DNA from: Escherichia coli
GTDB taxonomy: Bacteria > Pseudomonadota > Gammaproteobacteria > Enterobacterales > Enterobacteriaceae
NCBI RefSeq assembly: GCF_044647545.1
Contig: NZ_CP172818.1
Reading direction: 5' to 3' (one strand)
Length of the DNA stretch: 64,000 bases
This document shows, in pieces, positions 8,453 to 61,889 of the stretch. The notes beneath the pieces are model-generated. The model was not told where the DNA came from and did not search any database. It saw only the letters and a program-made list of their open reading frames with translations. The stretch's first letter is position 1, and each line of letters opens with the position of its first letter. A program made the translations under genes and the position numbers.

Positions 8453-9376
8453 GTGCGTAGCCGTTTTTCGGCATTTTATCCAAAAGCAAACTATGGCTTA
8501 CAAGGAAGCCAACCCTCTGATGTTCGTGCGCATAATCGCGCTGCCAACGGCGCGTGTGATGAATACAAACAACTCAAGGTGCTCTCCATGGGAAGACAAA
8601 AAGCAGTGATCAAAGCTCGTCGCGAGGCAAAACGTGTGCTGAGACGGGATTCGCGCAGCCATAAGCAGCGTGAAGAAGAATCGGTCACCTCGCTTGTGCA
8701 GATGAGCGGCGTAGAAGCCATTGGTATGGCCCGCGACAGTCGCGATACTTCGCCCATCCTCGCGCGAAATGAAGCGCAATTGCACTATCTGAAGGCTATT
8801 GAGAGTAAGCAGCTGATATTCGCCACGGGCGAAGCTGGGTGCGGAAAAACCTGGATCAGCGCAGCAAAAGCGGCAGAGGCCCTGATACATAAGGATGTCG
8901 ACAGGATTATCGTCACCCGTCCAGTTCTGCAAGCCGATGAAGATCTTGGCTTCTTACCTGGTGATATCGCAGAAAAGTTTGCTCCCTATTTTCGCCCGGT
9001 CTACGATGTGCTGGTCCGGCGCTTAGGGGCTTCCTTTATGCAGTACTGCCTGCGACCAGAAATAGGGAAGGTGGAAATTGCGCCGTTCGCCTATATGCGT
9101 GGACGTACCTTTGAAAATGCAGTCGTCATTCTTGACGAGGCGCAGAATGTGACTGCCGCGCAAATGAAAATGTTTTTAACCCGCCTCGGGGAGAACGTGA
9201 CGGTTATCGTCAACGGTGATATCACGCAATGCGATTTGCCTCGCGGCGTGTGCTCCGGATTAAGTGACGCGCTGGAACGTTTCGAAGAGGATGAAATGGT
9301 CGGGATCGTCCGATTCGGTAAAGAGGATTGCGTACGTTCGGCACTTTGCCAACGTACGCTACATGCATACAGTTAA
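8453..9376 (+). CDS. phoH: PhoH, phosphate-starvation-inducible ATP-binding protein (start uncertain; ATG at 8588 would give 262 aa)
   Basis: ORF track 307 aa; Walker A motif GEAGCGKT; C-terminal ...CQRTLHAYS; recognised as E. coli PhoH. Confidence 0.88.
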   Translation: MRSRFSAFYPKANYGLQGSQPSDVRAHNRAANGACDEYKQLKVLSMGRQKAVIKARREAKRVLRRDSRSHKQREEESVTSLVQMSGVEAIGMARDSRDTSPILARNEAQLHYLKAIESKQLIFATGEAGCGKTWISAAKAAEALIHKDVDRIIVTRPVLQADEDLGFLPGDIAEKFAPYFRPVYDVLVRRLGASFMQYCLRPEIGKVEIAPFAYMRGRTFENAVVILDEAQNVTAAQMKMFLTRLGENVTVIVNGDITQCDLPRGVCSGLSDALERFEEDEMVGIVRFGKEDCVRSALCQRTLHAYS

Positions 9377-17620: not shown

Positions 17621-17708
17621 TGGCGGTGAGGGGGGGATTCGAACCCCCGATACGTTGCCGTATACACACTTTCCAGGCGTGCTCCTTCAGCCACTCGGAC
17701 ACCTCACC
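17621..17708 (-). tRNA. serX: tRNA-Ser (anticodon GGA)
   Basis: Reverse complement reads GGTGAGGTGTCCGAGTGGCTGAAGGAGCACGCCTGGAAAGTGTGTATACGGCAACGTATCGGGGGTTCGAATCCCCCCCTCACCGCCA: long variable arm, CCA end, anticodon loop cuGGAaa. Confidence 0.93.
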
Positions 17709-22601: not shown

Positions 22602-23252
<651 letters not shown>

Positions 23253-24007
23253 GATGAAACCCCGCTTTTTTTTATTGATCGCACACCTGACAGCTGCCTC
23301 TAAAATAGAAGCACCAGAAGTACTGACAGATGTTGCACTGCTGTGTGTAGTAATAAATCAGCCCTAAATGGGTAAAATATAAAACTAATGGATTACATCT
23401 GATTTCAATCTAGCCATTACAAATCTTAAATCAAGTGTTAAACATGTAACTAAATGTAACTCGTTATATTGAAATGTTAATCTTAAGGTTTTATTAAGTT
23501 TAGAAATGATAGAAAAGTTGTACATTTGGTTTTTATTGCACAATTTTAAAAAATCATACAAATGGTGCTAACTTGCTAATAATGCATATAAAAAATATTT
23601 CGGTGTAGTCCTTTCGTCATGTAAAACGTTCTTGTTTTTTCTCTACACCTCCTTGGACAATTTTTTACTGCAAAAAGACGAGGTTTGTCACGGCTTGTGC
23701 GCAAGACATATCGCAGCAATCAGCGACGTGCAAGAAGAATGGCTGTCTGGTGATTTTTGATTGCGGAAAACGGAGATTTAAAAGAAAACAAAATATTTTT
23801 TTGCGTAGATAACAGCGTATTTACGTGGGTTTTAATACTTTGGTATGAACAAAAAAAGAAAAATACAACGCGCGGGTGAGTTATTAAAAATATTTCCGCA
23901 GACATACTTTCCATCGTAACGCAGCGTTAACAAAATACAGGTTGCGTTAACAACCAAGTTGAAATGATTTAATTTCTTAAATGTACGACCAGGTCCAGGG
24001 TGACAAC
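23253..24007. promoter_or_regulatory. csgD-csgB divergent intergenic regulatory region (csgDEFG and csgBAC promoters)
   Basis: ~750 bp AT-rich non-coding region between divergent curli operons; the only ORF in it (23720..23914) is low-complexity and judged spurious. Confidence 0.8.
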
Positions 24008-33473: not shown

Positions 33474-33575
33474 GCCTGATGCGCTACGCTTATCAGGCCT
33501 ACATCGCTCCTGCAATGTATTGATTTTGCAAGATTTTGTGGGTCGGATAAGGCGTTCACGCCACATCTGGCAAAA
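33474..33575. repeat. REP/BIME extragenic palindromic repeats
   Basis: gcctgatgcgctacgcttatcaggcctac and gtgggtcggataaggcgttcacgccacatctggca are classic REP units. Confidence 0.75.
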
Positions 33576-41620: not shown

Positions 41621-42667
41621 TTATTGTTTAACGGACCAGCGTACCGTTTCCCCAGCGAGGAATGGCACCAGGGTGTCATCAGTCAGTGCGATGCTTTCAG
41701 CAACCTGTTGCTCTTCACGTACCAGTTCGATGAATGTGTCGTTGACCGGCAAGCCATAGAACTGCGGGCCGTTTACAGAACAGAATGCTTCAAAGTGCTG
41801 CAAAGCATTCATCTCTTCAAAGACGGTAGCGTAACTGCCCAGCGCGGTTGGGGCGTTGAAGCAGCCCGCGCAGCCGCAGCTGCTCTCTTTGCGATGACGT
41901 GCATGTGGCGCAGAATCCGTTCCGAGGAATACACGATTAAAACCGCTGGCGACCAGTTCACGCAATGCCTGTTGGTGGATATTGCGTTTGAGGATGGGTA
42001 GACAATACAGGTGCGGACGCACGCCACCAACCAGCATATGGTTGCGGTTAAACATCAGATGCTGCGGAGTGATGGTGGCAGCCAGCCGTTCATTTCCGTC
42101 ACGGACATAGTCGGCAGCATCTTTGGTGGTGATGTGCTCAAAAACGACTTTCAGCGCAGTCAGACGCTGGCGTAGCGGTTCCATCACGCTTTCTATAAAG
42201 CGCGCTTCACGATCAAAAATGTCGATATCTGCATGTGTCACTTCACCATGCACCAGTAGCGGCATACCGATTTTTTCCATGCGCTCTAATACCGGCATGA
42301 TTGCGTCAACTGACGTCACGCCGTGACTGGAGTTAGTGGTTGCGTTTGCCGGGTAAAGTTTTGCAGCGGTGAACACGCCTTCGTTAAATCCGCGCTCCAG
42401 CTCATTCGGATCCAGCGAATCTGTTAAATAACAGGTCATCAATGGGGTGAAATCGTGCCCGGCAGGTACGGCGTCAAGAATACGCTGGCGATACGCCACG
42501 GCAGCCTCAACGGTGGTCACGGGCGGAGCCAGATTGGGCATTACGATAGCCCGTCCATAAATTTCGCTGGTATACGGCACGACAGTTTTTAACATGTCGC
42601 CATCGCGGAGGTGAAGGTGCCAGTCGTCTGGGCGGCGGATCTTTAATACCTGGGATGGTGCAGTCAT
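41621..42667 (-). CDS. pyrC: Dihydroorotase PyrC
   Basis: ORF 348 aa, [27 protein letters not shown]...; recognised as PyrC. Confidence 0.95.
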
Positions 42668-42718
42668 TAATCTCTATGCTCCGGCTGAAGGGATGTTTTT
42701 GCCGGACACAAAGGATAA

Positions 42719-42734
42719 GCGGAAACGTTTTCCT
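42719..42734 (-). promoter_or_regulatory. PurR operator upstream of pyrC
   Basis: Minus strand reads AGGAAAACGTTTCCGC, matching the palindromic PurR box core (GCAAACGTTTGC-like). Confidence 0.7.
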
Positions 42735-42737
42735 TTG

Positions 42738-42766
42738 CACGAAAAATAAAGGGCGCGAATGCGCCC
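42738..42766 (-). terminator. Probable terminator after dolP/yceB
   Basis: gggcgcgaatgcgccc hairpin followed by a T-run on the minus strand. Confidence 0.55.
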
Positions 42767-42772
42767 TCGTGA

Positions 42773-43333
42773 TTAATCCGTAAACGGAATGACAATTTCG
42801 CCTGGCTTCACTTCAATGCCTTTCGCCAGTTTCTTCGCCATTGCTTCGCCCTGGCTGCCATCTTCGCGCAGGACGTAAGCAGGTTGCTGGTTAAAGTAAT
42901 TGCGTAATGCCTGGTTCAAATAGGGGAGCAACGTTTGCATCACCGTTTGCATTTTTTCCGGTTGTACCGTCGCATCGACCACTTCCATCTCTTTCAGGAA
43001 GATCGCACCTTTTTCTTTATCAAACACGGGCAGCGCTTTCAGCTTCAGTTTCATGGTCGCTTTCTGGCTACCGAACAGGGAGTTCATGTCCAGATTGGCG
43101 TCTCCGGTTAGGGTAACCTTATTCGGCTCTTCGCGACCAATTTGGCTGGTCAGGTTTGTCAGAACAATATGGGCGTCAGCCACGCCGGGTAAACCGATAT
43201 CTTTTGAGAAATTATTATGTTTCGCAAGCGACTGGTTAATTTCTTGTTCGGTGATGGTGTATTGGGTGAGTTGATTACAGCCAACGAGCAGGCCACTGAC
43301 GATCAATGCAGCGGCAAATAAAAACTTGTTCAT
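42773..43333 (-). CDS. dolP: Outer-membrane lipoprotein DolP/YceB (BON domains)
   Basis: Track ORF 42773..43534; the MNKFLFAAALIVSGLLVGCNQ start (lipobox LVGC) gives 186 aa. Confidence 0.9.
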   Translation of the reverse strand: MNKFLFAAALIVSGLLVGCNQLTQYTITEQEINQSLAKHNNFSKDIGLPGVADAHIVLTNLTSQIGREEPNKVTLTGDANLDMNSLFGSQKATMKLKLKALPVFDKEKGAIFLKEMEVVDATVQPEKMQTVMQTLLPYLNQALRNYFNQQPAYVLREDGSQGEAMAKKLAKGIEVKPGEIVIPFTD

Positions 43334-61090: not shown

Positions 61091-61800
<710 letters not shown>

Positions 61801-61858
61801 TGATAATTATACAGCACATGTAACGCTAATGTCATTACAGCAAAGATGCTACCCCTGA

Positions 61859-61889
61859 AATAAAAAAGCCCTGGCAGTTACCAGGGCTT
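61859..61889 (-). terminator. Rho-independent terminator of rne
   Basis: aagccctggtaactgccagggctt hairpin followed by ttttta on the minus strand, 19 nt 3' of the rne stop. Confidence 0.7.

Follow-up and report, generated by a model that had tools for sequence, protein, structure and literature searches.

The 16-mer AGGAAAACGTTTCCGC, read at 42734 to 42719 on the minus strand in the yceB–pyrC intergenic region of this E. coli chromosome, is very probably the PurR operator of the pyrC promoter, mediating the known mild repression of this gene by purines. Control of pyrC by PurR is itself already known, from literature going back to 1990 and from the curated E. coli regulatory network, and the repressor reportedly lowers pyrC transcription about twofold, a figure ascribed to two studies of that year. 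The sequence, position and constraint of the site were computed here; binding, repression and start-site switching are taken from the literature. The window, i.e., the whole stretch of DNA that was analysed, is 64 kb in length.

The segment from 42668 to 42772 is the entire 105-nt intergenic region, which extends from the yceB stop codon (42775–42773) to the pyrC ATG (42667), and the gene order on the minus strand is mdtH, grxB, yceB, pyrC, dinI, bssS, solA. The regulated gene pyrC (41621–42667, minus strand) encodes a dihydroorotase of 348 aa, as seen from the list of open reading frames, the RefSeq annotation and homologues named dihydroorotase. The gene upstream (42773–43333, minus strand) encodes a DUF1439 lipoprotein of 186 aa; RefSeq gives it as “yceB: lipoprotein” and it matches Pfam PF07273 (DUF1439, E = 7e-53). 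It is followed by an intrinsic terminator at 42749–42768 (minus strand), detected by terminator scan and folding, which consists of GAGGGCGC-ATTC-GCGCCCTT and a T-run to about 42741. The terminator hairpin has a predicted energy of −15.2 kcal/mol (z = −5.1), and none of 200 shuffled sequences folded as well. The earlier note had located the box between the pyrC start and an upstream dolP terminator. The position is correct, with the hairpin at 42768–42749, but the gene is yceB and not dolP according to both RefSeq and Pfam.

To score the site we used a matrix (PWM) built from the 28 PurR 16-mers in Table 1 of the ChIP-chip study by Cho et al. (2011; PMC3159470). As pyrC is absent from these 28 motifs, the matrix is independent of the tested site. 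On both strands of the 64-kb window the top match was the pyrC box, with 16.46 bits, at exactly the position where the earlier note had seen a likeness to the PurR operator. The score corresponds to p = 1.25e-6 per position, which gives a chance expectation of 0.16 matches per window and ∼12 per 4.6-Mb genome. The sequence match alone is therefore not significant genome-wide, and the box gains its weight because it lies in a nucleotide-biosynthesis promoter and is conserved.

The box agrees with the PUR-box motif ACGNAAACGTTTGCNT and its invariant central C8–G9 and C14. C8, G9, T11, T12 and C14 are all present, and position 13, a G in 27 of the 28 known PurR sites, is a C instead. The training sites score 11.8–25.4 bits; the box falls inside this range but would be the seventh lowest against the 28, i.e., in the bottom quarter. 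This low rank arises because the preferred GCAAAC is found in neither the left (AGGAAAAC) nor the right (GCGGAAAC) half-site; the preferred C4 is missing from both, which is true of only one of the 28 known sites, the weak gadX site. With G instead of C at position 13, the box would score 23.3 bits, a gain of ∼6.8 bits. In the PurR register, with the dyad between C8 and G9, the symmetry comprises AAACGTTT and the G3/C14 pair only (5 of 8 pairs), and the eye-catching palindrome GGAAA-ACG-TTTCC sits half a base off this axis. A search with the idealised palindrome ACGCAAACGTTTGCGT and up to three mismatches did not recover the pyrC box, because it differs from that sequence at four positions; the PWM was used in its place.

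Other PurR-like matches were also found in the window. Two abutting matches, AGGTTATCGTTTGCCC (14.3 bits) and AGGAAACCGCTTGTGT (14.0 bits), lie at 22612–22643 (plus strand) in the last codons of csgD by the csgD–csgE junction, and a third of 12.1 bits is located at 22844–22859, 200 nt from this pair. At a cutoff of 13.9 bits, approximately 0.7 matches are expected in the window and three were observed in addition to pyrC (P about 0.03). The published PurR ChIP list (PMC3159470) does not include csgD, and the csgD matches are probably due to chance.

The pyrC box appears to occupy the entire −35/−10 spacer of the promoter. The −10 hexamer TATCCT (42712–42717, minus strand; TATGAT or TATGCT in some genera) was placed by alignment and from the Rfam PyrC_leader match, which opens with it. 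A putative −35 hexamer, GTGCAA (42735–42740, minus strand), was assigned from its 17-nt spacing to the −10 and from conservation, and matches TTGACA at three of six positions. A scan for sigma-70 consensus promoters between 42500 and 43000 called none because the −35 is too weak for the threshold, and we therefore relied on the literature, on conservation and on the Rfam leader to place the pyrC promoter. With the promoter elements placed in this way, the box would overlap the core promoter of a nucleotide-metabolism gene, at roughly −29 to −14 when counted from the C start (42705). This is the usual location of PurR sites, found in 44% of PurR promoters (PMC3159470). The near edge of the box is 52 nt upstream of the pyrC ATG, and a single base separates it from TATCCT and from the Rfam match. 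Thus, the box is not in the pyrC leader, as had been suggested, but wholly 5′ of the leader match (42717–42668).

This leader match (Rfam RF02372, 42668–42717, minus strand) scored 68.7 bits in cmscan against a gathering threshold of 50 and is full-length (1–50 of 50). RF02372 represents translational control at the RNA level, whereas the PurR box is an adjacent DNA operator outside it. In the leader stem, CCGGC (42705–42701) pairs with GCCGG (42685–42681), which overlaps the Shine-Dalgarno GGAG. The cluster CCGG at about 42702–42705 (minus strand) probably holds the alternative start sites, judging from the sequence and from the review PMC6524683. According to that review, initiation takes place at C residues 6–7 nt below the Pribnow box at a high CTP/GTP ratio, and the two extra Cs then enable the mRNA to form a hairpin that masks the ribosome-binding site; at a low ratio, initiation takes place at G and the resulting transcript is translated (PMC6524683). 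When we shifted the 5′ end base by base over four candidate 5′ ends, the predicted energies were −8.7, −5.6, −4.6, and −1.6 kcal/mol. This gradient reproduces the start-site-dependent stem stability described in PMC6524683.

The published evidence on PurR at pyrC is of two kinds. In PMC3159470, pyrC is counted among 15 PurR target regions characterised earlier by in-vitro DNA binding and in-vivo mutation; the same paper also places it among the genes that respond to deletion of purR and for which direct repression has been demonstrated by experiment. PMC3159470 and PMC6245113 credit the in-vitro binding of PurR at pyrC to Choi and Zalkin (1990), and for the repression of pyrC by PurR the established references are Choi and Zalkin (1990) and Wilson and Turnbough (1990). 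The repression of pyrC and pyrD is modest, comparable to the three- to four-fold repression at carAB P1 and far below that of the pur genes (PMC6245113). The ChIP-chip experiments, done with and without adenine, missed two of the 15 known sites, pyrC and glnB, and the authors found it “unclear why” (PMC3159470). We found no later in-vivo PurR occupancy data for pyrC in the literature, ChIP-exo included, and the sole genome-wide study is the one by ChIP-chip. The earlier note had held that lack of PurR binding in EMSA or ChIP data would speak against the site. Such a lack is seen for ChIP-chip, but in-vitro binding is reported as positive; therefore, the operator claim stands, though for a weak site. 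Its low intrinsic strength, seen in the lack of a strong half-site and in a score in the bottom quartile, plausibly explains the ChIP-chip miss together with array-based peak calling. We infer that the weakness of the operator is also the cause of the mild repression.

In order to assess the conservation of the box, we located pyrC loci without regard to their promoters, using degenerate DNA patterns for a conserved N-terminal coding motif. Scans of species-representative genomes and of metagenomes yielded 120 loci each, with four and one from enterics, respectively, and the rest mostly from distant Proteobacteria. Ten further genera of Enterobacteriaceae were added by protein search and contig look-ups, all of them syntenic (yceB-pyrC-dinI-bssS) with spacers of about 100–236 nt. 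Yersiniaceae, Erwiniaceae, Morganellaceae, Pasteurellales and further Vibrionaceae lie outside this sample. Among the 116 scorable genome loci, the top four upstream PWM scores came from Citrobacter, E. albertii, Superficieibacter, and Aliivibrio, of which the first three have the same box at the same distance as E. coli. Beyond these four, the median of the best upstream scores was 2.1 bits and their 95th percentile 10.4. The box was present at one enteric metagenome locus, and none of the metagenome loci listed with a PyrC identity of ≤63% exceeded 9.3 bits upstream. Across about 230 non-enteric pyrC loci, from genomes and metagenomes and among those listed, no comparable box was found, save for Aliivibrio's own.

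Within the Enterobacteriaceae, the box is kept at the same position in the orthologous promoters of 14 of 15 genera, with the pattern A[C/G]GAAAACGTTT[C/A]CGC in the 15-taxon alignment. Variation is seen only at position 2 (C or G), where the usage of C and G in known PurR sites is 13:13, and at position 13, which is C in 12 genera, A in two and G in none. No change is seen in the CG core, at G3 or at C14 across the 14 genera. Thus, 14 of the 16 columns of the box are invariant, with a mean pairwise identity of 95.3% among the 14 taxa. The corresponding values for the −35 block are five of six columns and 97.6%, and for the −10 block four of seven columns and 87%. Both leader stem arms are invariant in all columns (100% identity, also when 15 genera are considered). 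Between these blocks the sequence drifts: the spacer from the terminator to the −35 has one invariant column of 33 (40% identity), the leader loop five of 34 (about 45–46%) and the spacer from the Shine-Dalgarno to the ATG none of 10 (33%). Third-codon positions of yceB were invariant at 0 of 15. Within E. coli, a 46-mer over the promoter and the box is identical in 5,372 of 5,423 complete genomes, and the 2.1-kb region around the box was found in 5,425 of 5,426, with 100% identity to several. On this conservation evidence, we rejected the possibility of a chance palindrome.

One apparent counter-example was also rejected. A Klebsiella pneumoniae MAG contig (L043) carries a pyrC paralogue in another context, and the box is present at the genuine orthologue in Klebsiella (L242). 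The gene on L043 is a second dihydroorotase-like gene without yceB upstream and without a PurR box, and it could pass for a pyrC orthologue in automated regulon comparisons.

The conservation could also reflect the promoter itself, i.e., the block may be constrained mainly by spacer geometry and contacts with RNA polymerase, with a likeness to PurR sites that is incidental or physiologically negligible. As the box coincides exactly with the −35/−10 spacer, promoter and operator constraint are inseparable by position, and both the ∼12 chance matches of equal quality per genome and the absence of PurR at pyrC in ChIP-chip (PMC3159470) would fit this explanation. We nevertheless regard it as highly improbable. 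Identity in the spacer, at 95%, exceeds the 87% of the −10 hexamer. What is usually under constraint in sigma-70 spacers is length and not sequence. Furthermore, the tolerated changes track the PurR matrix, with C or G at position 2 and a fixed CG core, G3 and C14. A spacer that is tighter than its own −10, with substitutions that follow the matrix, points to a transcription-factor site and not to promoter geometry alone. An unrelated PurR-type box at the same place in Aliivibrio also argues against a promoter-only constraint, as do the binding and mutational data cited in PMC3159470 and PMC6245113.

The Aliivibrio box was found upstream of pyrC in Aliivibrio sifiae (about 7120–7200 on contig L115). 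It reads AGTTAATCGTTTGCTT, scores 15.5 bits and lies on the opposite strand at a similar distance to the pyrC ATG. The two arms of an 8-bp inverted repeat, GCCTAAGC...GCTTAGGC, lie on either side of it. About 190 nt upstream, a divergent gene apparently begins, so that the target gene of this box is ambiguous.

The off-consensus half-sites of the E. coli box raise the question of another user. The site might serve chiefly or additionally a different repressor of the LacI/GalR family with a GAAAC/GGAAAC-like half-site, e.g., RbsR or Cra. Such a repressor would account for the avoidance of GCAAAC in both half-sites and for a position 13 that is never G in 14 genera despite a gain of 6.8 bits for PurR, and it would be compatible with the absence of PurR in ChIP-chip. 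The AAACGTTT core is common to LacI-family operators, and the right half-site GCGGAAAC appears closer to the presumed Cra-type sequence GCTGAAAC (7 of 8) than to that of PurR, ACGCAAAC (6 of 8). However, the left half-site fits PurR better. Our literature search found no report of Cra or RbsR control of pyrC, and the effect of purines has been assigned to purR genetically (PMC3159470, PMC6245113). We therefore give this alternative next to no credence as the main account of the site, and the operator of pyrC is best read as a PurR site. The suggestion of the earlier note that it underlies the known purine repression of pyrC is thus borne out by an independent PWM, a phylogenetic footprint and the published evidence (PMC3159470, PMC6245113).

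Compared with known PurR sites, the box described here is the same object as the pyrC operator of E. coli K-12, i.e., the same gene, species and intergenic region with no difference of substance. The window itself comes from a non-K-12 strain and is 100% identical to FDAARGOS_497 over the 2.1 kb compared. With the canonical PUR boxes of purF, purT, purHD, and purL it shares the 16-bp pseudo-palindrome, the central CG, the AAAC/GTTT core and G3/C14. The pur-gene boxes score 20–25 bits, whereas the pyrC box scores 16.5, has C13 and lacks a GCAAAC half-site; repression of the pur genes is far stronger than that of pyrC (PMC6245113), which was unseen by ChIP-chip. The pyrD box CGGAAAACGTTTGCGT (PMC3159470, Table 1) has a left half nearly identical to that of pyrC (GGAAAAC), and pyrD is like pyrC in combining a PurR box with a start-site-switch leader (PMC6524683). 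The two differ in the right half, which is the consensus GTTTGCGT in pyrD and GTTTCCGC in pyrC. In ChIP-chip, pyrD was found only with adenine and pyrC was not found (PMC3159470).

The pyrC box has not acquired a GCAAAC half-site in any of the 14 genera. It could be that the weak design is kept by selection for low PurR occupancy, or by dual use with a second LacI-family regulator, though we consider this doubtful. Simple inheritance among close relatives is an alternative explanation.

In the remaining genus, the box is interrupted. On a Phytobacter/Metakosakonia metagenome contig (L250, 606–740, in the yceB-pyrC spacer), a 124-nt element lies inside the PurR box, which is split after GTTTA. 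The insert has the terminal inverted repeats TATACCCA...TGGGTATA, and it contains matches to the two ERIC primers in the right order. Unannotated intergenic matches to it, 1–5 per genome at about 73% identity, occur in 4,729 E. coli genomes. Because of the primer matches and the intergenic matches in E. coli, we consider the insert to be an ERIC/IRU-type repeat. No ERIC copy was found in the 64-kb window. The end of the insert gives TTGAAG-17 nt-TATGCT, a plausible substitute −35. Four substitutions are found in the left half of the box, now orphaned, and the leader hairpin is intact. From its sequence, this lineage looks like one that lost the box to a repeat insertion, a natural loss of purine control with repair of the promoter.

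A number of further features were seen in the window and in the searches. Rfam matches on the minus strand comprise the Ysr251 antisense RNA (9178–9371, 186.9 bits), an 85-nt tRNA (17624–17708), the ES056 sRNA (23309–23400), which is just upstream of the csgD start and probably in its 5′ UTR, and the ES036/CssrF sRNA (33495–33537). A DUF1778 antitoxin/GNAT acetyltransferase toxin pair lies at about 61103–61887 between flgL and rne, as mapped from the identical FDAARGOS_497 genome; the pair is presumably not at this position in K-12. Among the proteins retrieved, a 425-aa “hypothetical protein” recorded for Astraeus odoratus, a fungus, shares 91% identity with E. coli PyrC and combines a DinI with an Amidohydro_1 domain, pointing to contamination of the Astraeus odoratus assembly by enterobacterial DNA. 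The same two domains occur in a second protein of 440 aa, and both (P0022 and P0003, respectively) look like gene calls that merge dinI with pyrC.

In mechanistic terms, a PurR dimer (LacI/GalR family) carrying hypoxanthine or guanine would bind the 16-bp box in the −35/−10 spacer and compete sterically with RNA polymerase, presumably by occlusion, which would modestly lower pyrC transcription. Purine supply would thereby be coupled to pyrimidine synthesis. This control would be independent of, and upstream of, the CTP/GTP control of start sites, the principal pyrimidine control within this intergenic region, where the choice between CC and GG (42705–42702) would decide whether the CCGGC:GCCGG hairpin hides the Shine-Dalgarno.

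Taken together, one 105-nt region combines a terminator, an operator within the promoter and a translational switch, each with its own block of conservation. The DNA operator is now separated from the adjacent RNA leader switch, and the name of the neighbouring gene is corrected to yceB. Three points appear mildly new: the genera share not only the operator but also its weak, off-consensus make-up, this conserved weakness plausibly provides a sequence-based reason for the ChIP-chip discrepancy, and a Phytobacter lineage no longer has the box after insertion of a repeat element.
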